A stretch of DNA of 64,000 nucleotides from a virus. Taxonomy: Duplodnaviria > Caudoviricetes. The position numbers and the translations under genes are program-made. The stretch covers positions 96,001 through 160,000 of IMG/VR virus record IMGVR_UViG_3300020049_016424. One strand, 5' to 3'. Each line of letters opens with the position of its first letter. The stretch's first letter is position 1. The notes below the pieces were generated by a model. That model worked only from the letters and a program-made list of their open reading frames with translations. It had not been told where the DNA came from and did no database searches. Shown here in pieces: positions 16,496 through 63,722 of the stretch.

Positions 16496-16521
16496 CTTTT
16501 ACCCTGCGAAGTGCCGTTTTT
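16496..16521 (-). promoter_or_regulatory. Putative phage-RNAP promoter AAAAC-N12-GGTAAAAG
   Basis: Motif repeated upstream of six minus-strand genes. Confidence 0.6.
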
Positions 16522-16573
16522 CGGACGCGGCAATCGCCTTGTTTTCAGGGGGTATGAGAGGGTAGACTGGGCC

Positions 16574-19500
16574 ATGGCCTCGGACCGTACCCCTCCTGTC
16601 TCCGCCGCTCCCGCCGGCCTGCGCCCTGTCGTTATCAGTGCCCGTGAGAAGCGAGAGCTTCTGCGCGAGAAGACGCTCGAGGGGCTGCAGAGCCTGTTTC
16701 CGATCTTGGGGCGGTCGCACGACCTGCACCTGATCTCGGCGGCGGTGAAGCCCACGACGTATTCGAGCAATGAACAGAAGCGTGCGATCCTCGAAGGCCG
16801 CACGCTGTCCGAGCCCATCGTCGGTCGTCTGGTGCTCAAGGACAAGGCGGGCGCAGTCGTCGACACGAAGGACAAGCACATCCTCGCGCACCTGCCGTAC
16901 TTCACCGAGCGCCACACGATGATCGTCGGGGGCAACGAGTACGAGGTACCGAACCAGCTCCGGCTCAAGCCCGGCGTCTACACCCGCGAGCGCGGCAACG
17001 GCGAGTACGAGGCTGCGTTCAACCTGAGCAAGGGCGAGAACTTCCGACTGTCGATGGACCCCGAGACCGGCAAGATGAGTGCGGAGTTCGCTACGACGAC
17101 CGCGCCGCTATACCCCCTTCTGCGCGCGCTCGGTGTGCAGGACACGACCGTGCGGCAGCACTGGGGCGCAGATCTCCTCGACGCGAACAAGAAGAGCGCA
17201 GGCAAGGAAGAAGCGGTGCTGAACAAGCTCGTCGCGCGCTTCCGCAAGCCGAAGGACGCGATGCCGTCGACGCTCGAAGGCAAGCGCGCGTTCGTGCAGA
17301 ACTACTTCGACGGCACGCGCATGAGCACGCAGGTGACCGAGCGGACGCTGGGCAAGGGCTACGATCGCGTGACTCCGGACGCGCTGTTGCGCGCCTCGCA
17401 GAAGCTGCTCGAGGTGCATCGCGGTGAGGCGGAGGAAGATGACCGCGACTCGCTCGAGTTCAAGACCATCCACAGCGTCGAGGACTTCTTCAAGGAGCGC
17501 CTCGAGAAAGACGCGAAGTACTCCGTCAACAACAAGCTCATCCACAAGATGAACCAGAGCAAGACGAAGCAGATCAAGGGCTTCATGCCGAACGCGGCGT
17601 ACACGCGGCCGTTGACGTCGTTCCTCACGAGCAGCGCGATCTCTGCGATCCCCACGCAGTTCAACCCGATCGAGCTCATCGATCACGCCGCAAAAGTCAC
17701 CTCACTCGGCGAGGGCGGCATCACGGCCGACCGCGCGATCCCGTTCGAGGCCCGCAAGGTGCACGGCACGCACTACGGCGTGCTCGACATCGTGCGCACG
17801 CCCGAGTCGGGGCATGCTGGCATCGACCTACGCGCTGCGATGGGCGCCTACCGCGACTCGGCGGGCGAACTCTACGCACACATGAAGGACACCCGCACGG
17901 GCAAGCACGCGCCGGTGCGTGTGACGACGCTCGCACGGAGCTCTGTCGGCTTTGCAGGACAGGGCGAGTCGAGCGCGAAGATGGACGCGCTCAAAGGCTC
18001 GAACGCAGTGTCGCTCGACCGCAAGAAGGTCGACTACGTCCTCGCCGATCACACGCACCAGTTCTCGCCCGCGACGGCGCTCGTCCCGTTCCTTGATGGG
18101 ATGCAGATGAACCGTGCCATCATGGGCAGCAAGTTCCAGACGCAGGCGCTGCCGCTGCTCGAGCGCGAAGTGCCGTTCATTCAGGCCCAGGCGCCCCGCG
18201 CTGGACACAGCATGGAGCGTGAGGTTGCGCGGCTCACCGTGCCCACCTCGTCTGTGCACGGCACCGTCGAGAAGATCGACGCGGACTACATCTACATCCG
18301 GCCGCATGCGGAGAAGCACGCTGCCGTCTCTGACGACCTCATCGAAGCGCCTGCGCGAGAGACAACTCCTGAAGAGACGCTCTGGGCCAAGCAGGCGGCT
18401 TACGAGGACTACGACCTCGACGAAGAAGACGGCCTCGACGATCTCGCAATCACGCCTCCGGAGCATCTCTCGGACGCGAAGATCGCGTCTTCGGACACGG
18501 GGCTCATCAAGCTCCCGTACGACACGCACTTCCCCCTCGCGGCGAAGACGTACTTGCACAATGACGTCACGGCGAAGGTGGGAGACACGGTTACGCCGGG
18601 GCAGACGCTCGCCGAGAGCAACTTCACCCGCAACGGCACGATGGCGCTCGGTAAGAACCTGTCGGTCGCGTACCTCGCCTACTACGGAAAAAACAGCAAC
18701 GACGCGGTCGTGATTTCGGAGGCGGCCGCGAAGAAGCTGACGAGCGAGCACATGTACAAGGAGGTCCTGCGCAAGGGACCTGACACGCTCCAGGGCAAGG
18801 CGAAGTACATGGCGTATTTCGGCATGCGCTTCACGAAGGCGCAGCTCGACAAGCTCGACGACAACGGTGTGGCGAAGCCGGGGGCGCACTTCAGCCCTGG
18901 CGACCCTATCGTGCTCGCGCTCGAGAAAGCGACGCCCTCTCCCGAGGCCGCAATGCTCGGGCACCTGCACAAGAGCCTCGTGAAGCCCTACCGTGACGCA
19001 GCGGTGATGTGGGAGCACCACACGGACGGGGAGGCGATCGATGCGGTGAACGCCGCGCGGCAGGTCGTCGTCACGGTGCGCACGCACGAGGCCATGAAGA
19101 TCGGCGACAAGCTCGCGAACCGCTTCGGCGGCAAGGGCGTCGTGTCCGAGATCATCCCGCAGCACAAGATGGTGCAGGACGAAGCCGGCAAGCCGATCGA
19201 CGTGCTCTTCACGAGCGCGGGCATCATCTCGCGCATCAACCCCGCGCAGGTCGTCGAAGGTGCCCTGGGCAAGGTGGTCGAGAAGACAGGCAAGCCGCTC
19301 GTCATCCCGCAGTTCCAGGACCACAGCAACGTCGAGTACGCAAAGAAGCTGCTGAAGGAACACGGCATCTCCGACAAGGAGACGGTCTATGACCCGGTCT
19401 CGGGGCGCAGCATCCCGAAGGTGTTCGTCGGACGCAGCTACATCCTCAAGCTCTTCAAGAGCGGCGAGACGAACTACGCAGCACGCGGCGTCACGAGCTA

Positions 19501-21154
19501 CGACGTGAACCTGCAGCCGACCAAGGGCGGCGACGAAGGTGCGAAAGGCCTTGGCAAGATGGAGATCAACACGCTGCTCGCGCACAACGCGCGCAACGTG
19601 CTCAAGGACGTGCTCACCGTGAAGTCCGAGAAGTCGGACGAGTACTGGCGTGCGCTCGAGTTCGGGCTGCCGCCGCCGGCGCCGAAGACGCCGTTCGTCA
19701 CGCAGAAGTTCAACGCAATGCTCACCGGCGCCGGCATCAACGTCGACAAGCGCGGCAGCATCGTCGGTATCCATGCGCTGACCGATGCGCACGTGAAGGG
19801 GCTCTCGAGCGGCGCGCTCACGCTGCCGGAGCTCGAGAAGAGCAAGAGCTTCATGGTCACGTCGAAGAACCTGAAGCCCGAGACCGGCGGCCTGTTCGAC
19901 CCCGTGCGTACCGGCGGGCTGTCGGGCACGCGATGGTCGCACATCGAGCTGCCCGAGGCTTCGGTGAGCCCCGTGTTCGAGGAGCCCGTACGGCGCCTCC
20001 TCGGCCTCACCAAGGCGAGCCTCGAGAAGGAGCTGATGGACAAGGGCGGCGACGCCCTCAAGAAGAAGCTCAACCGCCTCGACCTCGACAAGCTCGAGAC
20101 CGAGCTCGAGGACAAGACGCGCACGGCACGCGCCTCGGCGCTCGACGACGTCGTCAAGCAGCTGAAGTACGTCCGCGCGCTGAAGTCGCACGGCGTGAAG
20201 GCCGGCGACGCGTATTTCCCGACGCTCGTGCCGGTCATCCCGCCCATCATGCGGCCGATCCTGCCGAGCCAGCGCTCGGGAGAGCTTCAGATCTCAGATG
20301 CGAACTACCTCTACCGCGACGTGGCGCTGGCCGCAGCGGGCCTGAAGGCCGCGAAGGAGACCGAGCTCCCCGAGCTCATCGGCTCCGCACGCAAGCACCT
20401 CTACGACGCCCACGCAGCGCTCGCAGGCACCCGCGAGCCCACATCACCGCAGCTTCAAGGCCGCGGCGTGAAGGGCTTCGTCACGCAGGTGACCGGCGCA
20501 GGCAGCCCGAAGAGCGGCTTCCTCTTCAAGAAGATCTTGAAGCGGCAGCAAGACCTATCGGGCCGCGCCACCGCGACGCCCGACAACACCCTCGACATGG
20601 ACCAGATCGGGGTGCCCGAGGACATGCTCTGGAAGACGTACGACAAGTTCGTCATGAAGGGCCTCATCGGGCAGGGCTACGCCGCGACCCGCGCACAGGA
20701 GATGGTGCAGGAGCGCCACCCTGCCGCGAAGGTCGTCTTCGACCGAGAGCTAAAAGAACGGCCGGTGTTCGTGAATCGAGCACCGTCGCTCCATAAGCAC
20801 AACTTCGTGGCCGCCTTCCCTGTAGCGGTTTCTGGGACCTCATTCCGCGTGAACCCCTTCATCGAGAAGGGCATGAACCTCGACTTCGACGGCGACGCCA
20901 TGCAGCTGCATGTGCCGGTATCCCCGAAGGCCGTCGAGGAGGCCAAGAACCTCACGCTGAGTAAGCTCCTGTTCACCGACAAGGCCCGGGGCGATCTCAT
21001 CATCTTCCCACAGCACGAAGCCATCATCGGCGCCTACCTTGCTACTTCGGGCGCCGCGAAGGGCGCTTCGAAGAAGTTCAAGGACAAGGCAGCCGCGATG
21101 GCCGCGTACAAGCGGGGCGAGATCACCCTCGAGACTCCCATCGAGATCGGCTGA
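16574..21154 (+). CDS. Phage multi-subunit RNA polymerase: beta fused to N-terminal half of beta'
   Basis: Beta motifs TPESGHAG, NRAIMGSKFQTQALPL, LGKNL, GDKLANRFGGKGVVS, SRINPAQ, GKMEINTL; beta' motifs GGLFD, HIEL, VPVIPP..RP, SGRA, NRAPSLHK, catalytic NLDFDGD; start set at MASDR (TAGACT 5 nt upstream). Confidence 0.95.
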   Translation: MASDRTPPVSAAPAGLRPVVISAREKRELLREKTLEGLQSLFPILGRSHDLHLISAAVKPTTYSSNEQKRAILEGRTLSEPIVGRLVLKDKAGAVVDTKDKHILAHLPYFTERHTMIVGGNEYEVPNQLRLKPGVYTRERGNGEYEAAFNLSKGENFRLSMDPETGKMSAEFATTTAPLYPLLRALGVQDTTVRQHWGADLLDANKKSAGKEEAVLNKLVARFRKPKDAMPSTLEGKRAFVQNYFDGTRMSTQVTERTLGKGYDRVTPDALLRASQKLLEVHRGEAEEDDRDSLEFKTIHSVEDFFKERLEKDAKYSVNNKLIHKMNQSKTKQIKGFMPNAAYTRPLTSFLTSSAISAIPTQFNPIELIDHAAKVTSLGEGGITADRAIPFEARKVHGTHYGVLDIVRTPESGHAGIDLRAAMGAYRDSAGELYAHMKDTRTGKHAPVRVTTLARSSVGFAGQGESSAKMDALKGSNAVSLDRKKVDYVLADHTHQFSPATALVPFLDGMQMNRAIMGSKFQTQALPLLEREVPFIQAQAPRAGHSMEREVARLTVPTSSVHGTVEKIDADYIYIRPHAEKHAAVSDDLIEAPARETTPEETLWAKQAAYEDYDLDEEDGLDDLAITPPEHLSDAKIASSDTGLIKLPYDTHFPLAAKTYLHNDVTAKVGDTVTPGQTLAESNFTRNGTMALGKNLSVAYLAYYGKNSNDAVVISEAAAKKLTSEHMYKEVLRKGPDTLQGKAKYMAYFGMRFTKAQLDKLDDNGVAKPGAHFSPGDPIVLALEKATPSPEAAMLGHLHKSLVKPYRDAAVMWEHHTDGEAIDAVNAARQVVVTVRTHEAMKIGDKLANRFGGKGVVSEIIPQHKMVQDEAGKPIDVLFTSAGIISRINPAQVVEGALGKVVEKTGKPLVIPQFQDHSNVEYAKKLLKEHGISDKETVYDPVSGRSIPKVFVGRSYILKLFKSGETNYAARGVTSYDVNLQPTKGGDEGAKGLGKMEINTLLAHNARNVLKDVLTVKSEKSDEYWRALEFGLPPPAPKTPFVTQKFNAMLTGAGINVDKRGSIVGIHALTDAHVKGLSSGALTLPELEKSKSFMVTSKNLKPETGGLFDPVRTGGLSGTRWSHIELPEASVSPVFEEPVRRLLGLTKASLEKELMDKGGDALKKKLNRLDLDKLETELEDKTRTARASALDDVVKQLKYVRALKSHGVKAGDAYFPTLVPVIPPIMRPILPSQRSGELQISDANYLYRDVALAAAGLKAAKETELPELIGSARKHLYDAHAALAGTREPTSPQLQGRGVKGFVTQVTGAGSPKSGFLFKKILKRQQDLSGRATATPDNTLDMDQIGVPEDMLWKTYDKFVMKGLIGQGYAATRAQEMVQERHPAAKVVFDRELKERPVFVNRAPSLHKHNFVAAFPVAVSGTSFRVNPFIEKGMNLDFDGDAMQLHVPVSPKAVEEAKNLTLSKLLFTDKARGDLIIFPQHEAIIGAYLATSGAAKGASKKFKDKAAAMAAYKRGEITLETPIEIG

Positions 21155-21155: not shown

Positions 21156-21812
21156 CTACTTCGCCCATCTCTCGCGCATGCACCCGGGCCACAAGCCTTC
21201 CAGCTCGAGGAACTCCGAGATCGTGCGCTGCACCACCGTGACGATCATGTGTTCGTCTTCGAGGCGCACTGAAAGAGCAAGCGCAGCACGGATGTCCGCA
21301 TGCCTGGTTCGCGGCTGCTCCGCGAGGGCGTTCTGCGTGATGACCTCATCGAAACGATCTCCGCAGGCGTTGTTGAACACACGAAGTGCGGCTACTGTGG
21401 CGCGCCGCTTCTCTTGATCGTGCAGCTTCTGCCGGAATGGTCCGTTGATTCGATACGCTCTCTCGTGATAGATGTTGGGCAGCCCTACGAGGGTTGTCGG
21501 CGTACTCCACCGCTTAGGCGGGTGTGGATGCTCTCCAGGAGCATCGTTGCCGTAGAGCAGCGCTACCTGCTTGTACACACCGCCTTCACCTGCACGGCAC
21601 GCCGCGAGCCCTTCTTGAAGGTAGGTGCACGGCAGTTTGTGGGGTTGGTGCACGTAGAGATGGCACAGCCCTAGTACGGCGTGCACCGCACAAAGAACGG
21701 CGTTCTCCGGGGCGATGTCTGCCGTGAGCCACCAGGCGCCATCCGGAAGCGGGAAGAGAGGGGCCATCTTCGTGACGAAAGTCTGGAACGTTTCTTCGGG
21801 CCATTGGGGCAT
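21156..21812 (-). CDS. Hypothetical protein (putative early gene)
   Basis: Start set at MPQWPE; GGTAAAAG motif upstream. Confidence 0.6.
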   Translation of the reverse strand: MPQWPEETFQTFVTKMAPLFPLPDGAWWLTADIAPENAVLCAVHAVLGLCHLYVHQPHKLPCTYLQEGLAACRAGEGGVYKQVALLYGNDAPGEHPHPPKRWSTPTTLVGLPNIYHERAYRINGPFRQKLHDQEKRRATVAALRVFNNACGDRFDEVITQNALAEQPRTRHADIRAALALSVRLEDEHMIVTVVQRTISEFLELEGLWPGCMRERWAK

Positions 21813-21843
21813 ATTGGTGCGGCTTTCTGTGGGGGTATATCTT

Positions 21844-21870
21844 CTTTTACCCTCAAATGCCGTTGGTTTT
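21844..21870 (-). promoter_or_regulatory. Putative phage-RNAP promoter AAAAC-N14-GGTAAAAG
   Basis: Repeated motif. Confidence 0.6.
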
Positions 21871-22521
21871 GGCAACGTGACGCTTCTTTCCGTGGAGCCC
21901 GCGGTCACGTTCTTCTTCGTATTTTCGTAGCCGTGCTTGTACCCGCTGCTCCTTCCGGATGACGCGTGCCGTGCCTGCGATTTCTTCCGGGTGGGCTACC
22001 CAGCCCGGGGATTGTCTCATCACCGCGGTGACCGTGGTGCGGACTCGGTCTGCAATCATGTGCGTGCGCTGCCGCTTCATCGCACTCAGGACCTTTTGCG
22101 CGGTGTAGCTCGAGTCACGAAGCGCAGGTCGAGCTCTGAGCGACGCATGTCCGAACGTCAGCAGGGCTTCGCGGTTGAAGCCGTCGAGTACGGGCTCGAG
22201 CACCAAGATTGTCGCTGCGAGCGCGTCGATCTCATGCCGATCGCCCTTTGCCGTTCCGCCCAGGTTTGAGATCACCCCCACGTGGTCATCCAGATGCCTG
22301 TCCTTGAGCAGAAAGCGCAGGAGACGATCTGCACTACTGTCAGAGGTCAGATACACGGCCCAGTAGTGCCCAAGCTCGTGCACGAACCCTTCGATAGCCG
22401 CGTGCGGGGAGTTTGTGAACACGCCAAACGCGCCCGTGTCCCCTGTGAGGTAGCAGAGCGCCTTGTCCGCGATCTTTGTGCAGGTCTTCGCAGACCAATA
22501 CCGTGAGGAGGGAGCTTTCAT
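21853..22521 (-). CDS. Zincin-like (HExxH) metallopeptidase-family protein, ImmA/IrrE-like
   Basis: FVHELGHY and downstream HEIDA; start set at MKAPSS. Confidence 0.5.
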   Translation of the reverse strand: MKAPSSRYWSAKTCTKIADKALCYLTGDTGAFGVFTNSPHAAIEGFVHELGHYWAVYLTSDSSADRLLRFLLKDRHLDDHVGVISNLGGTAKGDRHEIDALAATILVLEPVLDGFNREALLTFGHASLRARPALRDSSYTAQKVLSAMKRQRTHMIADRVRTTVTAVMRQSPGWVAHPEEIAGTARVIRKEQRVQARLRKYEEERDRGLHGKKRHVAKTNGI

Positions 22522-22594
22522 ACGTGCTTCTACCGTGCCCTGCCGCCGCTTTCGGAGCCCTTCCCTCGAAAGGCCTCTGTGATACGCTGCGGAG

Positions 22595-23530
22595 GTGCTT
22601 TCCCCCGAACAGCTCCTGAAGCTCGCTGCGCCCATCTTCTCAGCAGAAGCTGCGCCTCTCGCGCAGCGTCTCTTCTCGACGAAGCTCGGTCCCACTGGCG
22701 CGCAAGCGTTGCAGAACCGCTCGCGAGCAGTGACTGACCGGATTACGCAGCAGGGGCTCGCTCGGGCACGCGCACTCGGGGACGCCGCAGGTCCGACTTC
22801 CTCGAAGTGGCTCGCATCCCGCTCGGGGTGGAATGCCCCGACACTCGCGAGTCCGCAGTTCGACTCCCTCTTCGAAGGAGCGCTGAAGGCAGCGGCTGCA
22901 AAGAAGAAGGACGACGACACCGACTACGACGATCTCCGCAGTACCCTGCGGAGTTTCGCGCCGTTCACGGACGATGTAGCTCGCAGGGTCACATCGCATG
23001 CGAAGAAGCGCGGCGCGAAGAGGGCGCTCGAGAAGTTCGGCATGGAGCTCGCCTTCGACACGCCGCAAGAGGTGCAGCGTCACCGTGACGTGCGCGGACT
23101 CGCCCAAGGTGCGGGCGCCCTGGGCGGCGCCTACGCCGGCTTCAAGGCCACGCCCGGCGGCATGGGGCGCAAGCTCCTCGGCGGCGTGATCGGAGGCGGC
23201 CTCGGACACACGGGTGCCGGCATCGCGGTGGACTCCGCCCACGACATCCCGCAGCGTACGCGGGCGCAGTACGACACCACGCAGCAGCGCCTGCATGCAG
23301 CCGGCGGCGTTCCTGCGCTGAAGCTCGCGGACATCGCCGACGATCTCGTCGCAGCCATCGCCGAGGGCGAGGGGCACGAAGTAGGCCCTGGCACCGAGTC
23401 CTTCGCGGAGTCCGAGCTTGCGCAGCGCACGTCGTCCCCGTCCTGGGGCGCGGTGGCGAACGTAGACGGCAGCGGAACGCAGGGCGGAAACATGCAGACC
23501 GGCGCTGGGATGTCCTACGGAGGCGTGTGA
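22595..23530 (+). CDS. Putative inner-head/virion protein with glycine-zipper segment
   Basis: TGaTACGCT 6 nt before GTG; KLAA/KLAD, GAKRALEKFGM, GxxxG segments. Confidence 0.65.
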   Translation: MLSPEQLLKLAAPIFSAEAAPLAQRLFSTKLGPTGAQALQNRSRAVTDRITQQGLARARALGDAAGPTSSKWLASRSGWNAPTLASPQFDSLFEGALKAAAAKKKDDDTDYDDLRSTLRSFAPFTDDVARRVTSHAKKRGAKRALEKFGMELAFDTPQEVQRHRDVRGLAQGAGALGGAYAGFKATPGGMGRKLLGGVIGGGLGHTGAGIAVDSAHDIPQRTRAQYDTTQQRLHAAGGVPALKLADIADDLVAAIAEGEGHEVGPGTESFAESELAQRTSSPSWGAVANVDGSGTQGGNMQTGAGMSYGGV

Positions 23531-25005
23531 TGCCGCTCGAGGGCGCCGAAGCTCTTCGCACCACGCTGCAACCGCACCAGCAACGTGTGGGCGACCGGCT
23601 GTCTGCAGATGACCAGCCGGGGCTCGTAGCCATCCACGGCCTCGGCAGCGGCAAGACCCTCACAAGCATCGGCGCCGCACAGGCGCTCGGGCTGCCTGCG
23701 CACGCTGTCGTGCCTGCCTCGCTCCAGGGCAACTACGAGAAGGAGCTCGACAAGCACCTCACGACGGGGGCAGCGCGGCCTGAAGTGCACTCGCTGCAGC
23801 GCACGACGATGCGCCCCGAGAGCGTCGACCCTGCGGGCGGTTTCCTGATCATGGATGAGGCGCACCGCGTCCGCGACCCTTCGACGAAGAGCTACAGTGC
23901 CGCGAAGCAACTCGGACAACAGGCTGCGAAGCGCCTGTACATGACCGCGAGCCCCACCTACAACCACCCCGTCGATCTCGCGCCCCTCGTGAACCTTGCT
24001 GCAGGGGAGAAGGTCCTGCCGGCGAACAAGCAGGAGTTCGAAGATCGGTACGTGCGCACGCGCCGCATCGACCCTGGATTCTTCGCACGCACCTTTCGCG
24101 GCATCAAACCCGGCGAGGTGCAGGAGCTCACGCGCCAGCAGGAGCTCGAGGACGTCGCGAAGAAGTGGGTCGACTACCACGAAGGCGGCGGAGGTGATTT
24201 CCCCGACCGTATCGATGAGACCATCTCCGTGCCGATGTCGAGCGAGCAGCGCGACGTCTACGACACGGTGCTTGGCAAGGCCCCTGCCTGGATGCAGTAC
24301 AAGGTGAGGCACGGGCTACCCCCTTCGAAGGCCGAAGCTGCCGATCTCAACGCGTTCATGACCGGCGCGCGGCAGGCACAGCTCTCCCCGCACGTGTTCC
24401 AGCAAGGGATGGACCCGCTGCTGGGTGCGACGAAGCAGCACGCCGCATTCGAGCGTCTGCAGAAAGCCATTGCAGAGAACCCGGAGCATCGGGCAGTCGT
24501 CTACTCGAACTACCTGCAAGCGGGCCTCGGGCCCTACCAGGCCCTCCTCGACAAGCACCAGATCCCATACGCGTCGTTCACCGGCGAAATGGGGCGCGGT
24601 GAGCGGGAGCAGGCCGTGCGTGACTACAATCGGGGCAAACTCCGTGCGCTCCTCGTCTCGAGCGCGGGCGGCGAAGGCCTGGACCTGAAGGGGACACGGC
24701 AGCTGCAGTTACTCGAACCTGCTTGGAACGCCGAACGGCTGAATCAGGTGATTGGGCGGGGGATCCGCTATAAGAGCCACGCGCATTTACCCGAAGATCA
24801 GCGCAACGTTCGCGTAGAACAGTATTTGTCTTCCATCCCGCAGGGGCATCTAGGCAAGTTCTTTGGTGTGCAACCCGAGATGACGGCTGACGCGTACCTC
24901 ACGCAGGTAAGTGCAGACAAAGAACGGCTGAATCAGCAGTTACGTCGCATATTGGAACGCGCGCAAGCCCATGCTACTCCTCCCCTAGCGCATGAAAAAA
25001 CATAA
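23527..25005 (+). CDS. SF2 (SNF2-like) helicase between the RNAP genes
   Basis: HGLGSGKT, MDEAH, MTASP, SAGGEGLDLKG, QVIGRGIR. Confidence 0.9.
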   Translation: MMPLEGAEALRTTLQPHQQRVGDRLSADDQPGLVAIHGLGSGKTLTSIGAAQALGLPAHAVVPASLQGNYEKELDKHLTTGAARPEVHSLQRTTMRPESVDPAGGFLIMDEAHRVRDPSTKSYSAAKQLGQQAAKRLYMTASPTYNHPVDLAPLVNLAAGEKVLPANKQEFEDRYVRTRRIDPGFFARTFRGIKPGEVQELTRQQELEDVAKKWVDYHEGGGGDFPDRIDETISVPMSSEQRDVYDTVLGKAPAWMQYKVRHGLPPSKAEAADLNAFMTGARQAQLSPHVFQQGMDPLLGATKQHAAFERLQKAIAENPEHRAVVYSNYLQAGLGPYQALLDKHQIPYASFTGEMGRGEREQAVRDYNRGKLRALLVSSAGGEGLDLKGTRQLQLLEPAWNAERLNQVIGRGIRYKSHAHLPEDQRNVRVEQYLSSIPQGHLGKFFGVQPEMTADAYLTQVSADKERLNQQLRRILERAQAHATPPLAHEKT

Positions 25006-25894
25006 GTACCGCGTACAAGAGTACCGCGCAGAGTATCATGCGCTGTGGAACGCCGTAGCTCGCTGTACAAACCCGCGCAATGCTTCGTACTCTGCATACG
25101 GCGCAAAAGGGGTCCAGGTGTGTGAAGCATGGCGCGGCTCTGAAGGATTCAACGTATTCATCCACGATATGGGGCCCCGTCCTAGTGTTCTACACAGTTT
25201 GGACCGTGTAGATGTGACGGGCGGTTACACGCGCGACAATTGTCGGTGGGCCACCCGATCAGAGCAGGCAAATAACACTAGGAATACCCGAAAAATCACG
25301 CTATTTGAAACAACTAAGACGTTCAAACAGTGGGCGGCAGTGTACGGACTGCGCGATTCGTTAGTGCACACCCGTATCAACAAACTAGGCTGGCCGATAG
25401 AGCGTGCGTTCACCACGCCTGCTGCGAAGGTGGACCAAGCTAAGGGCGCAGACCCTGCAGCAGCCGCCCTTCGACGTGCGATCCAACGCTGCCACAACCC
25501 AAACAACCCACAGTACGCGCGCTATGGCGCTCGCGGAATCGTTGTCTGCACACAATGGCGTGGAAAGCGGGGCCTGTCGCAGTTCAAACAGGATATCGGA
25601 CCCCATCCGGGGCCTGGATATTCGCTGGATCGAATAGATACCAACCAAGGATACGCGCCGGAAAACTGTCGTTGGGCGACACGAACAACACAATTGAATA
25701 ACCGTAGGTGCACTAAAACCCTAACATACGCAGGACGCTGTCTCACGTATGCGCAATGGGCGCGAGATCTGGGCATTGACGAACAGACAGTCCGCTGGCG
25801 CATCAAACAAGGGTGGCCCCTTCCGCGGGTGCTCGCGCCAAGCCCAATACAACGCGCACGCAGGCTCTTGACCGCTGCCGCAGCTACCCAGTAG
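24992..25894 (+). mobile_element. Free-standing homing endonuclease with two tandem HNH units
   Basis: Two copies of RC.NP...Y..YG..G..VC..W...SLDR.D...GY...NCRWAT...NN; visibly lower GC than flanks. Confidence 0.85.
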
Positions 25895-26572: not shown

Positions 26573-28369
26573 ATGAAGACGCTCGGCCAGCACCTGCTCG
26601 ATGACGCCGTACCCGCCGGCTATCGCCCACAAGGGGCTTGGACGCGCGGGGCGCTCTACAAGCAGATGGTGCGGCTCGCGCAAGACGACCCCGAAACGTA
26701 CACGCAGACCATCGTCCGGGTGAAGAACCTGGGCGATGAGCTCGCGACGCTCGAGGGCATCAGCGTCGGTCTCGACGACATCGCACCGATCCACGCGACG
26801 CGGGATGCCGTGATGAAGCCCGCGATCTCCGCCTTCAACAAGGCGACGACCGACACGCAACGCCGCAAGGTCGTCATGGACACGCAGGCGAAGCTCGTCG
26901 CGCAGACCAAGGACCATCCCGGAACGCTCGGCGCGATGGCGCGTTCAGGCGGCCGCGGTAACCAGGTGCAGCTGATGAAGACGGTGGGCAGCCCCGTGGC
27001 CGCAAACGACGAGCGGGACGTGGCGCAGCCCTGGCTGATCCGCAACTCCTACAGCGAGGGCCTCAAGCCCGCAGACTGGTGGACCGCGAATCGCGAAGCG
27101 CGCATGGCCGCGGTGAAGTCGACCATCGAGGTCACCGAGCCGGGCGACCTCTCGAAGATCATCGTCAACAACACCACCGGCCAAGTCGTCACCACGCACG
27201 ACTGCGGCAGCTACAACGGCCTCGAGTTCCAAACGACGTCGTCTGAGATCTACGACCGATACCTCGCAGGCGCCGCGGGCGGCTTCCCGCACAACACGCT
27301 CATCGACAAACGCGTCGTCGACGAACTCCGCAAGAAGAACATCACGAAGGTCATCGTGCGCTCTCCGATGACGTGCGAGGCTTCGACCGGCGTGTGCCAG
27401 CTCTGCATGGGTCGCGCCGTCACCGGCAAGCTCAACCGCATCGGGGACAACGTCGGCGTGCGCGCTTCGCACGCGATGGGCGAACCCCTCACGCAGCTCG
27501 CGCTCAACGCCAAGCACGGCGTGCGCACAGCGGGCGGCGCCGCGGGCGTCAGCGGTCTCGAGGGCTTCCGGGCGCTGATCGAAAGCCCCGTGACCTTCAA
27601 GGGCAAGGCGGCGCTCGCGCCGGTGAAGGGCACCGTAACGAAGATCGAAGCCGCGCCCCAGGGCGGTACGTTCTTCCACATGGGCGAACACCGCGTGCAC
27701 GCACTACCGGGGCTGCGCGCCGTCGTGAAGGCGGGCGACTCAGTGCATGCCGGGGACGTGCTCTCCGAAGGCACGCCGCGTCCGATGGAGGTCGTGGCGC
27801 TCAAGGGCCTCGGTGCCGGTCGGGACTACCTGGTGAACCAGCTCGGCACGATCTACAGGGACGCAGGCATCGACGTCGATCGCCGGCACCTCGAGATCCT
27901 CGCCAAGAGTACGCTGAATCACATGAAGGTCGACAAGATCGGTCAGAACGACCATGGCGTCGTTCGGGGCGACGTCATCACCTACAACAAGTTCCGGCAG
28001 ATCGTGAAAGACTCGATCGAGGACACGCCGCTTTCAGACGCCGAGGGCGAGTACCTCGCGGCGCCGGTGTTCGAGCACCTTCCAGGCACCCGCATCACTT
28101 CGGGCCTGATGGCCGATCTACGCCGGCGCGGTGTGAAGTCCGTGAAGACCGCCGCGGGCGCTCCGCAGGTGTCGCCCATCATGGCGCCTGCCACGCGTAA
28201 TCCGCTCTTGAACCCCGACTGGATGGCCCGCATGGGGCATCGCCTGCTCAAGCAGACGCTTCTCGACGCGGCGCACCAGGCGCACACGAGCGACATTCAC
28301 GGCGCATCGCCGATTCCCGCCATGATCTATAGCGCCGAGTTCGGCGAAGGTTTCGACGGGCACTACTAA
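26573..28369 (+). CDS. Phage RNA polymerase beta' C-terminal half
   Basis: SGGRGN, SYSEGL, TEPGDLSK (bridge helix), DCG, RSPMTC..GVCQLCMG, GEPLTQLALNAKH (trigger loop), DRRHLEIL. Confidence 0.93.
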   Translation: MKTLGQHLLDDAVPAGYRPQGAWTRGALYKQMVRLAQDDPETYTQTIVRVKNLGDELATLEGISVGLDDIAPIHATRDAVMKPAISAFNKATTDTQRRKVVMDTQAKLVAQTKDHPGTLGAMARSGGRGNQVQLMKTVGSPVAANDERDVAQPWLIRNSYSEGLKPADWWTANREARMAAVKSTIEVTEPGDLSKIIVNNTTGQVVTTHDCGSYNGLEFQTTSSEIYDRYLAGAAGGFPHNTLIDKRVVDELRKKNITKVIVRSPMTCEASTGVCQLCMGRAVTGKLNRIGDNVGVRASHAMGEPLTQLALNAKHGVRTAGGAAGVSGLEGFRALIESPVTFKGKAALAPVKGTVTKIEAAPQGGTFFHMGEHRVHALPGLRAVVKAGDSVHAGDVLSEGTPRPMEVVALKGLGAGRDYLVNQLGTIYRDAGIDVDRRHLEILAKSTLNHMKVDKIGQNDHGVVRGDVITYNKFRQIVKDSIEDTPLSDAEGEYLAAPVFEHLPGTRITSGLMADLRRRGVKSVKTAAGAPQVSPIMAPATRNPLLNPDWMARMGHRLLKQTLLDAAHQAHTSDIHGASPIPAMIYSAEFGEGFDGHY

Positions 28370-36971: not shown

Positions 36972-39929
36972 GTGGCCAACAAAATCATCACCTTCGACGA
37001 CCACTTCGCTACGGGCGAGCCGACGGTACAGCTCATCAGCACGCCGGGGCGTAATGGACGGATGCTCCGCGAGGCTACGTCGCTGCACAAGACCGCAGCA
37101 GGCAACGATTCGCCCGCGCTCGAATACATCAAGAGCGTGCAGCCGGAAGAGGGCAAGACGACGGTGCTCGTCATCGGCCTCGGAGATCACGAGACGTACG
37201 GCGCGAATCGCAATGGCGACGGATTTCCGAGCGAGCCGGTGCCCGGCAAGATCGCGGCGGACGAGGTGCTGACGAAGCACTACCAGAGCTACGACAACGC
37301 GCACGTCTTCGAGCACCACGTGAACCACGACCCGGCCAAGGCCATTGGCCGGGTGAAGAAGGCGTTCTGGAACCCCCGCATGCGGCGCGTCGAGGTGGTC
37401 GAGGACTTCGACCACAAGAAGGCGCCCCACCTGCTCGAGAAGATCGGTAGCGGGGAATATCCAAGTAAGTCGATGGGATGCGGCAAGGCCGGGACCCAGA
37501 TTCACACGCCGACAGGCCGTGTAGCCATCGAGACCATCGCCGTAGGGGACGAGGTCATCACGCACACGGGTGCGGTGCGGGTCGTCACCGAGCTGCATCG
37601 ACGTGAGTACCGCGGGCTGCTCTACACGATCCACTCCGGCGTGGGTACTTCCACCATGACGCAAGAGCACCCCTACGCGGTGCTTCCCTTTGCCGCCGTC
37701 TGCGCACGCACACCCCACGGTGAGTACAAACGCCGCCCTGTGGCAGAGATCGACACCGCGCATGTGCACTGGACTCCTGCGGAAGACGTACGAGTAGGGG
37801 ACTACCTTCTGACACCGTTCGATACGGCGGTGACGGAGAGCCTGTCTGTCGAGCAATGCCAATTCTTGGGGTACTACGCCGCGGAGGGGAACCTACACTA
37901 TGGCACCAGCCACTCAGTCGTGTTCACGCACCACGTGACAGACACGTTGCGCGAAGAGATGCCCGTCCTAGCGCGCGCACTGGGAGTTCCGAAAGTGAAT
38001 ACCCGTCCGCATGCCGAGTCCGCAGCGGCCATGTACACCGAGGTTCGCAGCAAGGAGCTGGCAGCGCTCTGCAACACGCATGTTGGCCGGCGAGCTCCTG
38101 AGAAGCGGCTGAGCCTGGAGCTCATGCGACAGCCGCGCGAGCAGCAACTCGCGTTCCTCGGCGCCATGATCAACGGAGACGGCGGCACGGACTCCAAAGG
38201 CGATTTTTACATCGCCACCTGCAACCGTAACCTTGCGCACCAGCTTCAAACGGTGGGATTCCGCTGCGGCATCTACTCATGTGTGCACACCATCAACCAC
38301 AAGCCGTCGGTGCTCGTCAAGAAATCGACCGTCGAGTACCGCGTGTGCTTCGCGCGACGGTACTGCGATGTCATCGCACCCTACTGCGCCAAGGTCTCCC
38401 CGCGAATGATGAAGGGGCCCAGCACCGGCCCCCTTCTCGGGGCGGGTTTCGTGATCTCTCGTGTGAAAGAGATCTCACTCGAGCCGTTCGAAGGCCCCGT
38501 CTACAACTTCGAGGTCGAGGGGGACAACTCCTACGTCACGGAGAATCACGCAGTCCACAACTGCAAGATCAAGTACGACACGTGCACGATCTGCGGCAAC
38601 AACGCGCCGACACGCAAGCAGTACTGCGAGCACCTGAAGTACTCGATGGGCAAAGTTCTGCCCGACGGCCGCAAGGTCGCTGCGCTCAACCCCTCCCCAC
38701 GATTCTTCGACTCGTCCTGGGTGTTCCGCCCTGCAGACCGCACGGGCTTCATGTTGAAGAAAGTCGCAGACGCCGTCGAGCTCTGGACTCCGAGCTACGA
38801 GCTCGCCGAGCGCGTCGAAGACCTACGCAGCAAGGCCGCTGCGTTCGGCAAGGCCTCTGCCATCGAAAAAACGATCTCGGGAGACCCGGTCGCGTCGAAT
38901 AGCGGCCTGCCCGGCGGCTCGCTCGGTCTCGTGAAGAAGTACTCAGACACGGCGCCAGAGAAGAAGGTCTCGGGCCCATCTGAGTCTCAAATCAAGGTGA
39001 TGATCGAGTACACGCCGTCTGAAGCGCTCGGCACCGCCGATGCGTGCGGCATGCCGCTCGGCCTCAAGGACTTGATCCAGTTCTTCATGGGCCGCATGGG
39101 CGCAGGCGCGCCGGATGATGCGACGCTCGAGCAAGCCTCGAAGCAGGCCGCCGCGGTGTTCGAGCTCTTCGAGCAGTATCCGCGCTTCTACGACGACGTG
39201 CTCAAGGCGGCAGGCCTCGCGGATGACCTGCGCGTCTCGGAGAAGCTCGCAAACGAACTAGCACCGCAACAGGTGCCAGACGTACGGCTGCGCGACACGC
39301 CGCTGCACCAGTACCGCGGCATCTCGATGCTCGCGCCGCGCGATCAGCGCCCGAACACCGACACGCTCACCTACACATCCCCGCAAGGACAGGCCTACAC
39401 GACGAATCTCGGACGTGCGCGGGAAACCGCGGAGTCGCTCGAGGGCCGCGCCCAGGCTGGAAAGTACCTGCGCGGCGCAGGCTACCTCGGCATGGGCACG
39501 CTCATGGGCGCTGCAGGTCTCGGCAAGCTGATGCTCGGCAAGCGCACCCCCATGAACCGCTTCCTCGGAGGGGGGCTCGCAGGGCTCGGCGTAGCGTCGG
39601 GCCTCAAGGGCATCCACGAAGGGGCCCGTGACGTGCGCATGGGTGACCTCGCAGGACCCAAGGTCATGACCAATGAAGGGGTGCCGATCTCGGCGTATAC
39701 CGAGATGGTTCCGGCCAAGATGGGCTCCTTCGCTCCGGAAATGGCCTACGTCTTGGCGCGGCGGCGCGACGGCGCTTGCGCTACAGTGCCCGAGACGCGT
39801 AAACTCGCGGTGTGCGCTCACATTGCAGAGGCTGAGATCGCAGACAGCGAGAGCCCCGTGCTCGGCCCGACTCTCCAGTTGGAAAAGACAGCGCTCCTCC
39901 TGGAAACCCACATCCTCTCTTGCCTCTGA
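36972..39929 (+). CDS. Prohead maturation protease (intein-containing) with C-terminal extension
   Basis: NRNGDGF, FEHH.N, AIG.V, spliced SMG|CKIKYDTCTICG..CEH, F.DSSWVFRPADRT; upstream of scaffolds and MCP. Confidence 0.75.
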   Translation: MANKIITFDDHFATGEPTVQLISTPGRNGRMLREATSLHKTAAGNDSPALEYIKSVQPEEGKTTVLVIGLGDHETYGANRNGDGFPSEPVPGKIAADEVLTKHYQSYDNAHVFEHHVNHDPAKAIGRVKKAFWNPRMRRVEVVEDFDHKKAPHLLEKIGSGEYPSKSMGCGKAGTQIHTPTGRVAIETIAVGDEVITHTGAVRVVTELHRREYRGLLYTIHSGVGTSTMTQEHPYAVLPFAAVCARTPHGEYKRRPVAEIDTAHVHWTPAEDVRVGDYLLTPFDTAVTESLSVEQCQFLGYYAAEGNLHYGTSHSVVFTHHVTDTLREEMPVLARALGVPKVNTRPHAESAAAMYTEVRSKELAALCNTHVGRRAPEKRLSLELMRQPREQQLAFLGAMINGDGGTDSKGDFYIATCNRNLAHQLQTVGFRCGIYSCVHTINHKPSVLVKKSTVEYRVCFARRYCDVIAPYCAKVSPRMMKGPSTGPLLGAGFVISRVKEISLEPFEGPVYNFEVEGDNSYVTENHAVHNCKIKYDTCTICGNNAPTRKQYCEHLKYSMGKVLPDGRKVAALNPSPRFFDSSWVFRPADRTGFMLKKVADAVELWTPSYELAERVEDLRSKAAAFGKASAIEKTISGDPVASNSGLPGGSLGLVKKYSDTAPEKKVSGPSESQIKVMIEYTPSEALGTADACGMPLGLKDLIQFFMGRMGAGAPDDATLEQASKQAAAVFELFEQYPRFYDDVLKAAGLADDLRVSEKLANELAPQQVPDVRLRDTPLHQYRGISMLAPRDQRPNTDTLTYTSPQGQAYTTNLGRARETAESLEGRAQAGKYLRGAGYLGMGTLMGAAGLGKLMLGKRTPMNRFLGGGLAGLGVASGLKGIHEGARDVRMGDLAGPKVMTNEGVPISAYTEMVPAKMGSFAPEMAYVLARRRDGACATVPETRKLAVCAHIAEAEIADSESPVLGPTLQLEKTALLLETHILSCL
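37479..38561 (+). mobile_element. Intein with LAGLIDADG homing endonuclease (361 aa)
   Basis: Begins CGKAGTQIHT; block B T.EHP; FLGYYAAEG and FLGAMINGDG; VYNFEV...AVHN followed by Cys. Confidence 0.93.
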
Positions 39930-55160: not shown

Positions 55161-55430
55161 TCAGGGGGTGGAAGGAGAAAGAGGGCGACGGCAAGCCGCG
55201 AGGTCCTCACGCAACAGGCGATTCTCCATGAGGAGCACCTGCTGGCGGCGAATGAGCTCCCGGGTGACACGCTGCTCGAGCACGTCGGCGCGCTCGTGAA
55301 GACGGCGTGCCTTGTGCCCCGCGTGGATCGAAAGCGCGATGCTGACGGCGAGGCCGAGGTAAATGGCTCCGACAATCCAGTTCGCCCGACGGCGACGCGC
55401 GGGGTCGGTGTCTGCATGTTCTTCTGTCAT
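55161..55430 (-). CDS. Small single-TM coiled-coil protein
   Basis: GGAGG SD; hydrophobic helix; GGTAAAAG motif upstream. Confidence 0.6.
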   Translation of the reverse strand: MTEEHADTDPARRRRANWIVGAIYLGLAVSIALSIHAGHKARRLHERADVLEQRVTRELIRRQQVLLMENRLLREDLAACRRPLSPSTP

Positions 55431-55453
55431 AGTTCCTCCAGAGAAGACCCCTT

Positions 55454-55482
55454 CTTTTACCCGCATCGGCTAGACTTTTCGC
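55454..55482. promoter_or_regulatory. Overlapping divergent promoters (minus GGTAAAAG type; plus TAGACT leaderless)
   Basis: CTTTTACC 55454-55461; TAGACT 55471-55476, 6 nt before ATG 55483. Confidence 0.55.
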
Positions 55483-56955
55483 ATGCCTGACCATACCCCG
55501 ACGACAGCGACCACGACCCAAGGCCGGACGAAGTTCGGCGGCATGGGCCAGGTCTACGGCCCTCCCGAGTTCGGAACCATCAGCGCCGTGGCGCCGAATA
55601 CGTATACGTACTCGGTGCGCACGATGTCTGGCCGTGCACTGCCGGGCGTGCCCCGCAAACGCATGTCGCCGTCCGACCTCGCGCTGCTCCCGGTCGGAAC
55701 CACGGTCATCGTGCGGTACGACATCGGCATGCCGTACATCGACGGCGTGCTCGATCAGCCGGCGACGCTCTCGACGACGCCAGGCATCCCCGCCACGGAG
55801 TCTGCGCCGCCTTTGAACCCTGCGGACACCTACGATCTCGGCAACCACCGCGCGCCACACGAACCGAACGACCTGCTCGGAGGCGACCACCTGCTCGGAA
55901 ACATGTCAGGTGTGCGGGTCGGCGCCCTAGCGGGCGGCGTAGCGCTGCTCCGAGCTTCTGGTGGCGCTCAGATCCGAGCACACGCCCTGAACGACCTCAT
56001 CGAGATGGTGAGCCGGAACTACCGCCACATCACCGACATGGGCTTCTTCGAGGTCAAGAACGACGGCGGCCGCGTCAGCATGAAGTTCCGGGGCGCGTCC
56101 GACCAGACGAACGAGGCGGGCGCCGACGAAGAGCACTGGACCATTCGCATGGACCTCGGCGCCGCAGGAGATCTCTTCAACTTCGAGCTCACGACGCCCC
56201 AGGGTGCAACGCTCTTCAAGCTCCACGTCGACAGCAACGGCCGCTGCGAGCTCTTCGGCCTGGACGGTGTGATCATCCAGTCCGGCGCGCAGAACGGCGA
56301 AGAAGCCGTCAGCGAAGCAGGCGGAGACACGCGGGATACCGTCCAGGGCAACCGCACCGAAACGACGAAGGGGAGCTCCACCGAGGAAGTCTCGGGGGAC
56401 CTCACGAGCTCCGTTGACGGCGTGCGTAGCGTCACGACCAGCAGCGACGTCGTCACCGTCACCGGGCGCGATCTCGGAGTCACCGTCGCCCGAAATGTCA
56501 GCGCTGTCGTCGGAGGCGACCCCACGTCCCCCACCACGCCGGCCGTTCGCGCAGAGGTGCGCGGCGGCGACGTCGAGCTCTCGCTCGGACAACCCACGAC
56601 ACCGAACCCTGGCATCAAGATCAACACGCAGAAGGGCGGCCTGAAGTTCGACTCACGCCTGGGAGGCAACGTCGAGCTCACCTCTTCGCTCGGGACCATG
56701 AAGGGAACCTTCCGCAAGGTCATCATCAACACGGCTGCGCCCGACAGCGTGATCATCGGCGGCAGCACTCTCGCCAGCCATCTCGCGAAGTTCGAAGAGC
56801 TCGAGCAGATGCTAGGCGTTCTCCTCCGTCTGCTCGACTCGCACGTGCACCCGCACCCCACGGCGCCCACGGGCCCGGTCGTCGTTCCCTTCTCGTCCAC
56901 GATCAAGCCGCTCATCGCGCGCATCAAGAGTCTGCGCGCCGGCGTCGGCGGATAG
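55483..56955 (+). CDS. Baseplate central spike (gp5/gpV-like)
   Basis: N-terminal OB-like domain, V.G beta-helix repeats, C-terminal SHVHPHPTAPTGP (HxH apex motif). Confidence 0.7.
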   Translation: MPDHTPTTATTTQGRTKFGGMGQVYGPPEFGTISAVAPNTYTYSVRTMSGRALPGVPRKRMSPSDLALLPVGTTVIVRYDIGMPYIDGVLDQPATLSTTPGIPATESAPPLNPADTYDLGNHRAPHEPNDLLGGDHLLGNMSGVRVGALAGGVALLRASGGAQIRAHALNDLIEMVSRNYRHITDMGFFEVKNDGGRVSMKFRGASDQTNEAGADEEHWTIRMDLGAAGDLFNFELTTPQGATLFKLHVDSNGRCELFGLDGVIIQSGAQNGEEAVSEAGGDTRDTVQGNRTETTKGSSTEEVSGDLTSSVDGVRSVTTSSDVVTVTGRDLGVTVARNVSAVVGGDPTSPTTPAVRAEVRGGDVELSLGQPTTPNPGIKINTQKGGLKFDSRLGGNVELTSSLGTMKGTFRKVIINTAAPDSVIIGGSTLASHLAKFEELEQMLGVLLRLLDSHVHPHPTAPTGPVVVPFSSTIKPLIARIKSLRAGVGG

Positions 56956-57011: not shown

Positions 57012-57338
57012 TCAGAGCGAGACGCCCTGGAGCTGTTCCGCGAGCGTCTTCGGAGGCGCCACACGCCGACGCTCGATCTTCGGCGGCTTCTTCGACGGCG
57101 GCTTCTTCGACGGCGGCGTCTTCGGGAGCGGCGCCGAAGCGCCCTCCGTGTCGGTGGCCGGAGAGGCGTCCGTCTCCGGAGCCGCGACGTCGACACGCCG
57201 GTTCTTCTTGCGACGTACCGGCGCGATCTCGGCCGAGGTCTTCGCAGCGCGTCGTGCACGGAAGACCGTGACCCCGTATTCGACGCTGCGGAGAACTGCG
57301 TAGCCGCCGAGTGCGGCACCTGCGATGATGGGAAACAT
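57012..57338 (-). CDS. Small protein with N-terminal TM and K/P-rich tail
   Basis: 108 aa; GGTAAAAG motif upstream (57385-57392). Confidence 0.6.
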   Translation of the reverse strand: MFPIIAGAALGGYAVLRSVEYGVTVFRARRAAKTSAEIAPVRRKKNRRVDVAAPETDASPATDTEGASAPLPKTPPSKKPPSKKPPKIERRRVAPPKTLAEQLQGVSL

Positions 57339-57569
57339 GGAGACCTGCTTTCGATGGTGGGGAAACTAATACCCTGGATACATCCTTTTACCGTAAACCC
57401 CCTTGTTTTTAGGACGAACCATGTGGCAAACGCCTCCCATCCTGAAGCTACTCCTGCACCTACAGCACCACGCAGCAAAGCTGCAACAAACCCGGGTTGA
57501 AGCAGAGCTCGAGGCTTTGGCCTCTCTGCTAGACTCCACGGAACCTCTCTCGAGCGAGCCTACTCCTCC

Positions 57570-61341: not shown

Positions 61342-61398
61342 CGGAGGGTCCAGGAAAGAGGAGTAGATGGGGTGAGGTGCGTGCAGTATAACAGAGAC

Positions 61399-61636: not shown

Positions 61637-61641
61637 GCAAG

Positions 61642-63000: not shown

Positions 63001-63064
63001 GATGCTTGTCTTTCTTGGAACGAATCGTTGAGGTGAAGCGTTGAATGGGGCGTTGAAGGCGCGC

Positions 63065-63643
63065 TCAGAGGAGCGCTTCGAGGAGCTTCACCGCGCGGGC
63101 GACGTCGTCCTTCGACGAGATCGTCAGCGCGAGAGGCTCCGCGAGTACGGAAGCCAAGATGGTGCACCGCACGGCCGTGACGACCGGCTTGCGGGGCGCC
63201 GGCACCTGCGGCGCGAGCTCGGACGTCTCGAGCGCGGCCGTGGTGTGCGCCGGGAGTTTCGTGGTGGCACGGAACTGCGCGCGGGCGCCTTCGATTGCGG
63301 CAGTGATCTGCAGCCCGATCTTGCCCGAGCGGTCATTCGGGATGGCGCGGCTCTCCGGGGAGAGGATGCCGTGCTTGCGGCGCGCGTTACCGATGTCGTT
63401 TCCCGAGCGCCCGAAGGCAATACAGAGCCCCCACCAGGAGCAACCCAGGCTATCCGCGAGGCGCATGAAAAAGCGCGTGTCCTTGCGAGACCAGGAGTGG
63501 CCCTTCGGCAGGGCGTCGATGCGGGCGACGACCTCCGGCGTGAGCTCGGCGAACGCGCGGTCCGTGGTGAGGGCGCGGTCGGTGTGCGGGAGTGCCTGCT
63601 GCTTCGAGCTGGCGGGGGTGTTGTTGAGAACGGTGATTTTCAT
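63065..63643 (-). CDS. Hypothetical, possible HTH DNA-binding protein (putative early gene)
   Basis: WSRKD...GCSWWGLCIAFGRS..; GGTAGAAG motif upstream (63691-63698). Confidence 0.55.
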   Translation of the reverse strand: MKITVLNNTPASSKQQALPHTDRALTTDRAFAELTPEVVARIDALPKGHSWSRKDTRFFMRLADSLGCSWWGLCIAFGRSGNDIGNARRKHGILSPESRAIPNDRSGKIGLQITAAIEGARAQFRATTKLPAHTTAALETSELAPQVPAPRKPVVTAVRCTILASVLAEPLALTISSKDDVARAVKLLEALL

Positions 63644-63722
63644 GAGTATGGTCTTTCTGCTCGAGGGGATTAGAGATTCCTCGGCAAGACCTTCTACCCT
63701 CAAAACCAGGCGTTTTCGGGCA

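Follow-up and report, generated by a model that had tools for sequence, protein, structure and literature searches.

A minus-strand candidate promoter with G at -7 in a large uncultured phage encoding a bacterial-type RNA polymerase and two sigma-70-family proteins

Short two-block signals stand ahead of many minus-strand genes in the 182,833-bp IMG/VR virus record IMGVR_UViG_3300020049_016424, an uncultured phage of the Caudoviricetes, and the question is what reads them. The DNA analysed here (the window) is a stretch of 64,000 nucleotides, bases 96001-160000 of that record. An original prediction, made from the letters of the window, had described an A-run followed after 12-14 nt by GGTA[A/G]AAG. 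It proposed a non-sigma70 promoter at which a phage RNA polymerase (RNAP) or a phage sigma factor would transcribe small early genes interleaved within the late module. The signal, called class A below, appears to be a promoter class read by phage-encoded machinery, a reading to which we give a probability of about 0.85.

The window has a GC content of 64.7% and the record is 100% complete by CheckV. Genes were called with a home-made codon-usage model, a caller that leaves gaps. Motif counts were compared with shuffles, first-order Markov simulations and reversed-word counts.

Read on the minus strand, the sites have [T]CC[G]AAAA at -22..-15, 14 unconserved bases and then GGTA[A/G]AAG[A]. The consensus is TCCGAAAA-N14-GGTARAAG, or more fully tCCGAAAA-N14-GGTARAAGa. 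The core as it appears on the top strand, CTTYTACC, has eight matches in the window, all on the + strand, for 0.92 expected, and none of 100 shuffles reached eight. Across the genome the same word occurs 23 times forward and once in reverse (reversed-word control, 8/6), and GGTANAAG is found 26 times on the minus strand and once on the plus strand, with 5.75 expected on both strands together. The two-block form is rarer by chance and more sharply confined: C..AA-N16-GGTA.AAG gives 16 minus-strand and 0 plus-strand matches genome-wide, for 0.06 expected on both strands and a maximum of 2 in 100 simulations. A two-block position weight matrix (PWM) finds 19 genome sites, every one on the minus strand and with identical spacing. 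As had been supposed, chance does not account for the recurrence of the words; the A-rich block is real, with a spacing that is strictly 14 nt. When the core positions were freed one by one, GGTA.AAG was regained in 16/16 sites, the final G included. Another 4-6 genome matches have the core without the upstream block; those that could be placed are in coding sequence, and they look like chance occurrences.

The six cores of the original prediction and its weaker copy at 4376 were all found where it had put them; an eighth core, at 11053, had been missed. These are the sites in the window:

16487..16525, minus strand: predicted class A promoter, TCCGAAAA at 16518-16525, a 14-nt spacer, GGTAAAAG at 16496-16503 and the initiation region; PWM score 34.5; gene start 38 nt past the core
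21835..21873, minus strand: predicted class A promoter (core at 21844), GCCAAAAC-N-GGTAAAAG; GAAAG, then ATG 31 nt past the core
22518..22556, minus strand: predicted class A promoter (core at 22527), TCCGAAAG-N14-GGTAGAAG; ATG 5 nt past the core
55445..55483, minus strand: predicted class A promoter (core at 55454), TGCGAAAA-N14-GGTAAAAG; occupies a 52-nt divergent gap; gene start 23 nt past the core
57376..57414, minus strand: predicted class A promoter (core at 57385), TCCTAAAA-N14-GGTAAAAG; gene start 46 nt past the core
63682..63720, minus strand: predicted class A promoter (core at 63691), CCCGAAAA-N14-GGTAGAAG; gene start 47 nt past the core, at the head of a minus-strand cluster from 63643 to ~60686
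11044..11082, minus strand: class A-type site (core at 11053), TCCCGAAAA-N-GGTAGAAG; within a called open reading frame (ORF), PWM score 28.2, start codon not found nearby
4367..4405, minus strand: weak class A-type site (core at 4376), TCCCAAGA-N14-GGTAGAAG; degenerate upstream block, under the PWM cut-off

The transcript from the 22527 site would probably be leaderless if initiation falls 6-7 nt past the -10 block, because the ATG is only 5 nt past the core. The 11053 site may serve the exonuclease gene at 9893-10768 as an internal promoter. The 4376 site lies 26 nt upstream of the start of the longest ORF for polA-UDG, a family-A DNA polymerase fused to a UDG domain (window 1002-4235, minus strand).

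The placement of the good copies is that of promoters. They are intergenic and co-oriented with a minus-strand gene, whose start codon follows the core by 5-47 nt in the window and 5-58 nt in the genome, close to the 5-50 nt first proposed. GGAG or GAAAG usually precedes the ATG, and these distances are compatible with transcripts that would start 6-9 nt past the -10 block. The genome-wide check on strand and position that had been called for gave a clear bias: in addition to the 19/19 PWM sites on the minus strand, 11-12 of the 14 divergent (minus/plus) gaps carry a site, and most other sites lie in minus/minus gaps. The confinement to small genes interleaved in the late module does not hold, since class A also heads long minus-strand clusters throughout the genome, one of them with a sigma gene (sigma-N, below), an AAA+ ATPase gene and micro-gene arrays. 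The site that heads the sigma-N cluster is at genome 20138-20146, minus strand. Between this site and the first gene (genome 20030-20146, minus strand) there are ~108 nt that contain no start codon, and the stretch could serve as an extended leader or yield a small RNA.

The geometry of class A is that of a sigma-70 promoter. With CCGAAA taken as the -35 block and TA[A/G]AAG as the -10 block, the spacer is 17 bp, and all 19 PWM sites have two blocks within the 17 +/- 1 bp typical of the sigma-70 family. The -10 block keeps T-12 and A-11 (16/16 when freed) and has GG at -14/-13. A housekeeping sigma-70/sigma-A promoter would have a TTGACA-like -35 and a TAnnnT -10 with T at -7. Class A has tCCgAAAA and an invariant G at -7 in 16/16 sites, so the remark that the hexamer lacks the last T of TAnnnT was correct. 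The label non-sigma70 needs to be divided. Strand, position, spacing and conservation among phages support a class that is read by a phage RNAP or sigma, but the geometry is classical sigma-70. From its sequence pattern, class A is therefore better seen as a putative sigma-type promoter in a variant form, with G at -7, and less well as a phage-RNAP promoter independent of sigma.

Plus-strand genes carry another signal, class B. This is a TAnnnT hexamer, often after TGn, that lies 5-7 nt before the start codon of genes without a Shine-Dalgarno sequence. Class B genes include the RNAP fusion, the terminase, a portal-like gene, several large virion proteins and sigma-V (below). Sites are found at window 13283, 16574, 22595, 43914 and 55483 and at many other places in the genome. 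By a simple filter, 17/72 plus-strand genes have class B compared with 4/82 minus-strand genes. The pattern suggests leaderless mRNAs that start at extended -10 promoters of sigma-A-like form, and the two strands use two different signals. On the minus strand, at window 5175-5272, TATAGACT stands 9 nt before the ATG of the exonuclease gene 4362-5174 as a class B-like leaderless promoter; thus the strand rule is not absolute.

The phage-encoded transcription machinery that had been postulated is present in the genome, as a bacterial-type RNAP and two sigma-70-family factors:

16574..21154, plus strand: RNAP beta-beta'N fusion, 1526 aa, beta domains followed by N-terminal beta' domains
26573..28369, plus strand: RNAP beta'C subunit, 598 aa, the C-terminal beta' part as a separate gene
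genome 15668-16438, minus strand: sigma-N, 256 aa, Pfam regions 2 and 4 above their cut-offs
genome 43275-43958 (L011:5275-5958), plus strand: sigma-V, 227 aa, a divergent sigma-70-family protein, ortholog of Gp10 of Salmonella phage Arash

The RNAP resembles bacterial rpoB/rpoC (NCBIfam E 1e-91 and 1e-57), and the fusion gene's own promoter is a leaderless class B promoter (TAGACT, 5 nt, ATG). A second RNAP set, as in phiKZ, was sought and rejected: PF00562 matches at one genome locus only, and Pfam found none in ten other large proteins.

Two proteins, sigma-N and sigma-V, are thus available as a cognate sigma. The best NCBIfam matches of sigma-N are RpoH (sigma-32) models, far under cut-off (84 vs 315 bits). 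Neither phage sigma is RpoH, because the scores are far under the RpoH model cut-offs. Sigma-N keeps the canonical YxxWW melting residues. Sigma-V is 33% identical to Arash Gp10 (E 3e-40). Its gene is in the virion module, two genes after an M23 cell-wall hydrolase, a layout that equals Arash gp8-gp9-gp10. Its relatives in metagenomes form >100 clusters with 50-86% identity, six of them on 170-190-kb contigs, and a profile built on this set of relatives hits regions 2.2-3.0 of SigA/RpoD (E ~1e-8). At the positions of E. coli Q437 and T440, the residues in contact with -12, Q and S are retained, and the melting aromatics of region 2.3 have given way to other residues, with H for Y430, N for W433 and Q for W434. 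An AlphaFold model of sigma-V (predicted local distance difference test, pLDDT, 78) can be aligned with sigma factors from end to end, the C-terminal four-helix domain included.

Other genes lie between the two RNAP genes. A third sigma was considered there, from a weak Sigma70_r4 match at window 25721-25813, and was rejected, as the match falls in an HNH/AP2-like homing-endonuclease ORF (window 24992-25894, plus strand). SNF2 helicases are among the proteins encoded in the window, and the second of these (window 23530-25005, plus strand, 491 aa) sits between the genes for the two RNAP subunits, on the same strand as these. In Arash, the helicase gp217 directly follows the beta' gene. The SNF2-family helicase between the RNAP genes may be a RapA-like polymerase partner.

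Relatives were sought through the RNAP protein, because a megablast search of INPHARED phages with 10 kb of sequence gave no match. The RNAP fusion found six IMG/VR loci with 39-62% identity, phage Arash with 36% and three Vibrio phages with 33%. In five IMG/VR relatives (L020-L024; 54-58% GC, RNAP 47-62% identical), the orthologous gap upstream of the RNAP gene, the divergent gap in which the 16496 site sits here, keeps both elements. The strand opposite the RNAP gene has TCCTAATTA or TCTAAAG, the same spacer and GGTA[A/C/T]AAG. The RNAP strand has a TATAAT, TATACT or TAGACT box 6-10 nt before the ATG.

The core can also be followed into more distant phages. In Arash (53% GC), GGTANAAG occurs 38 times on the minus strand and twice on the plus strand (control, 17/14). 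Thirty GGTATAAG sites give tcca.aa-N13-tGGTATAAGtAAagTGTAaa and lie 20-45 nt before the Shine-Dalgarno sequence and ATG of complementary-strand genes such as gp203c, gp202c, gp211c, gp214c and gp197c. G is at -7 in 30/40 GGTATAAN sites. One of the two plus-strand GGTANAAG copies (OQ632216.1, 11588-11595, plus strand) is 4 nt before gp9, upstream of the sigma gene gp10; it could reflect autoregulation by the virion sigma, or chance. A 147-kb relative with 36% GC (G001) has sites that read TCaAAAAA-N14-GGTATAAGTATtATGTAG. The same core with G at -7 is thus found in phages of 36%, 53%, 54-58% and 65% GC, one of which infects Salmonella. Conservation across such differing hosts argues for a conserved phage-encoded reader, and a host-sigma promoter appears very unlikely.

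The two sigmas differ in how well they are conserved. In Arash and the 36%-GC relative, strong conservation of sigma-V (E 1e-46 and 1e-42) contrasts with a sigma-N that can hardly be recognised (E ~1e-6, region 2 only); the second Arash sigma, gp196, has no region 4 Pfam match. Sigma-V and the class A core are conserved in parallel, which was counted in favour of sigma-V as the reader.

The Arash particle offers a clue to when such a reader could act. By mass spectrometry of purified particles, the RNAP "beta" protein Gp206 has 3516 spectra and is the most detected protein, Gp216 has 1210 and the sigma Gp10 has 467 (PMC10585845). Normalised to the annotated lengths of 1525, 606 and 234 aa, the counts are 2.3, 2.0 and 2.0 per residue, a roughly equimolar ratio. 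Gp196, the other Arash sigma, is not among the virion-table entries examined, and the paper presents no promoter or transcription work (PMC10585845). In the phage studied here, the genes for RNAP and sigma-V run in the same direction as the virion genes and, like them, have class B promoters, which fits packaged proteins.

These observations can be joined into a model. A holoenzyme of beta-beta'N, beta'C and sigma-V would be packaged and injected with the DNA. It would initiate at class A promoters, ~6-8 nt past the core, so that minus-strand non-structural genes would be transcribed first. Among these would be the orphan genes, the AAA+ ATPase, the micro-gene arrays, sigma-N and perhaps the replication genes. 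Next would come class B, that of the virion, RNAP and sigma-V genes, with either sigma-N (on a core from phage or host) or the host sigma-A as its reader. The most likely reader of class A would be sigma-V on the phage's own bacterial-type RNAP. A packaged sigma that reads class B makes little sense, because structural genes would then be transcribed first, and sigma-N cannot be what reads class A first, since a site of that class stands ahead of its own gene. We infer the start of transcription at class A sites, and the identity of the reading sigma and core, from sequence; virion delivery in this phage and the early timing would follow by analogy with the Arash virion proteome. The complete model, in which a packaged virion holoenzyme with sigma-V reads class A early, is close to evenly poised, with a slight lean in its favour.

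Several results weigh against this account. Regions 2 and 4 are matched more clearly in sigma-N than in sigma-V, and the best family matches of sigma-N are RpoH, whose -35 TTGAAA resembles CCGAAA, so sigma-N could be the reader. The Arash authors warn that abundant enzymes may be carried over into virion preparations, and ribonucleotide reductase (RNR) and a kinase were also detected (PMC10585845). In Vibrio phage D69 (OZ195729.1; RNAP fusion 33% identical), GGTATAAG is not enriched or strand-biased (3/6, control 7/4). The conservation is therefore broad and not family-wide, and a promoter signal in D69, if there is any, must differ from class A. Part of the replication cluster (window 1-13 kb) has no good class A copies and apparently uses TAnnnT-type promoters; thus class A does not cover all minus-strand genes. 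Intrinsic terminators that would delimit the small minus-strand units do not rise above chance, with eight found around them for 6.8 expected.

The alternative that survives best, though it is an unlikely one, gives class A to sigma-N as an RpoH-like factor on host or phage core. Class A would then be a "middle" class, transcribed once sigma-N has been synthesised, as with SPO1 gp28 or phiEco32 gp36. Sigma-N does have bona fide region 2 and region 4 matches, and the sigma-32 families are its best in NCBIfam. The sigma-32 consensus is CTTGAAA-N13-14-CCCCATNT, and it shares the -35 GAAA and the overall geometry with TCCGAAAA-N14-GGTAAAAG. The -10 block of class A is unrelated to that consensus, however, and the 84 bits of sigma-N are far from the 315 of an RpoH equivalog, so class A does not have the form of an RpoH regulon promoter. 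The sigma-N gene is itself in the cluster headed by the 20138-20146 site and would need another start. Sigma-N is poorly conserved in Arash and the 36%-GC relative (the E ~1e-6 above), though the motif core is nearly identical there, and its canonical YxxWW residues fit TAnnnT, that is class B, better.

It is improbable that class A is read by a sigma of the host, primary or alternative, whose unusual consensus the phage would mimic. Such a reading could draw on the sigma-70-like geometry and on the single position by which TATAAG in Arash differs from TATAAT. It is opposed by the recurrence of the core with G at -7 in phages of such different GC content, one of them a Salmonella phage. To our knowledge, the class A core matches none of the Salmonella sigma consensus sequences. 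A consensus scan for canonical sigma-70 promoters over 11 kb of the window (13-24 kb) found none, and the separate TGnTAnnnT class already fits the host sigma-A. In addition, T-7 is essential for primary sigmas (PMC7598289). Most improbable of all is that class A is no promoter and serves as the binding site of a phage DNA-binding protein (repressor/operator), as a replication or packaging signal or as a mobile mini-element: conserved bipartite sites can be operators, but every site faces a downstream gene and stands as far from its Shine-Dalgarno sequence and ATG as a promoter would, the sites lie almost only in gaps that need a promoter (those 11-12 of 14 divergent gaps), and the motif is asymmetric and non-palindromic, has -35/-10 spacing and is kept at orthologous gene starts in relatives.

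The genes directly behind the six good promoters of the window are orphans:

15885..16457, minus strand: orphan gene, 190 aa, behind the 16496 promoter
21156..21812, minus strand: orphan gene, 218 aa, behind the 21844 promoter
21853..22521, minus strand: orphan gene, 222 aa, behind the 22527 promoter
55161..55430, minus strand: orphan gene, 89 aa, behind the 55454 promoter
57012..57338, minus strand: orphan gene, 108 aa, behind the 57385 promoter
63065..63643, minus strand: orphan gene, 192 aa, first gene behind the 63691 promoter

A PHROG search of ten proteins gave no match for eight, the orphan genes of the window among them; the two that matched are exonucleases. In the virion module, a 985-aa protein (window 36972-39929, plus strand) has Hint and LAGLIDADG matches and is an intein-containing gene. 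No tRNAs were found in the window. A 93-nt tRNA-Asp called by ARAGORN elsewhere in the genome (L010 14837-14929, minus strand) lies antisense inside a 2818-aa plus-strand gene and is probably a false positive.

Comparison with known systems places class A in a known kind, the phage-specific promoters that are read by phage polymerases or sigmas. The early promoters of the virion RNAPs (vRNAPs) of phiKZ and AR9/PBS2 have a single conserved AT-rich block near -10, upstream of early operons, that bioinformatics can detect (PMC7598289). Class A shares with them a phage-specific AT-rich element near -10, a multisubunit RNAP expressed with virion genes and the proposed logic of a virion enzyme that acts first. 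PhiKZ and AR9 differ in having split and extremely diverged beta/beta' sets, two per genome, single-block promoters and no sigma-70-family factor, whereas this phage has one bacterial-like set, two sigma-70-family proteins, a two-block promoter with 17-bp spacing and unrelated sequences, and so does not belong to the phiKZ/AR9 type.

The phage sigmas SPO1 gp28 and gp33/34, T4 gp55 and phiEco32 gp36 are similar in that a phage-specific consensus, unused by host sigmas, defines a temporal class. Such sigmas are synthesised once infection has begun and work with the core of the host. This phage has its own core and a different consensus, and the ortholog of its sigma candidate is detected in Arash virion preparations. 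It has the chemistry of sigma-dependent promoters in common with SPO1 gp28 and T4 gp55 but belongs to their family no more than to that of phiKZ, AR9 and N4. RpoH promoters are likewise bipartite, with an upstream block that ends in GAAA and an 8-9-nt downstream block ~14 nt later, but GGTARAAG is unrelated to CCCCATNT. Sigma-70/sigma-A promoters share the 17-bp spacer, T-12, A-11 and the G at -14 of the extended -10 TGn; they differ in the -35, where class A has CCGAAA and not TTGACA, and at -7, where class A has an invariant G and not T. In N4, too, an injected polymerase reads a few phage-specific early promoters. The N4 vRNAP has a single subunit and recognises a hairpin in the DNA, and the class A motif includes no hairpin.

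According to reviews, RNAP-encoding jumbo phages are without sigma factors and sigma-encoding ones are without RNAPs (PMC7598289, PMC7824862). Literature searches on the motif, on Arash transcriptomics and on sigma-containing virion RNAPs found nothing relevant, and the combination seen here, a single bacterial-like RNAP, two sigmas and a spaced -35/-10 with G-7, was not found described in the literature. It can be suggested, only tentatively and with some doubt, that a widespread clade of ~150-190-kb phages (the >100 sigma-V clusters and Arash) packages a complete bacterial-type holoenzyme and launches infection from -10 elements that end in G, not T, after which a second sigma switches the same core to leaderless TGnTAnnnT late promoters. 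If the packaged-holoenzyme reading is true, it would be the first sigma-containing virion RNAP and would hold a natural sigma with altered specificity of the -7 pocket. The pair would be a compact orthogonal sigma/promoter system and a natural experiment from which to learn how region 2 of a sigma recognises position -7. The model is directly testable, as the same signal is present in the cultured Salmonella phage Arash, and the motif is a reliable guide to transcription units and gene starts in a large and mostly unannotated phage clade. Among known systems, the infection strategy would then lie between the injected polymerases of the N4 and phiKZ type and the sigma cascades of the SPO1 and T4 type.

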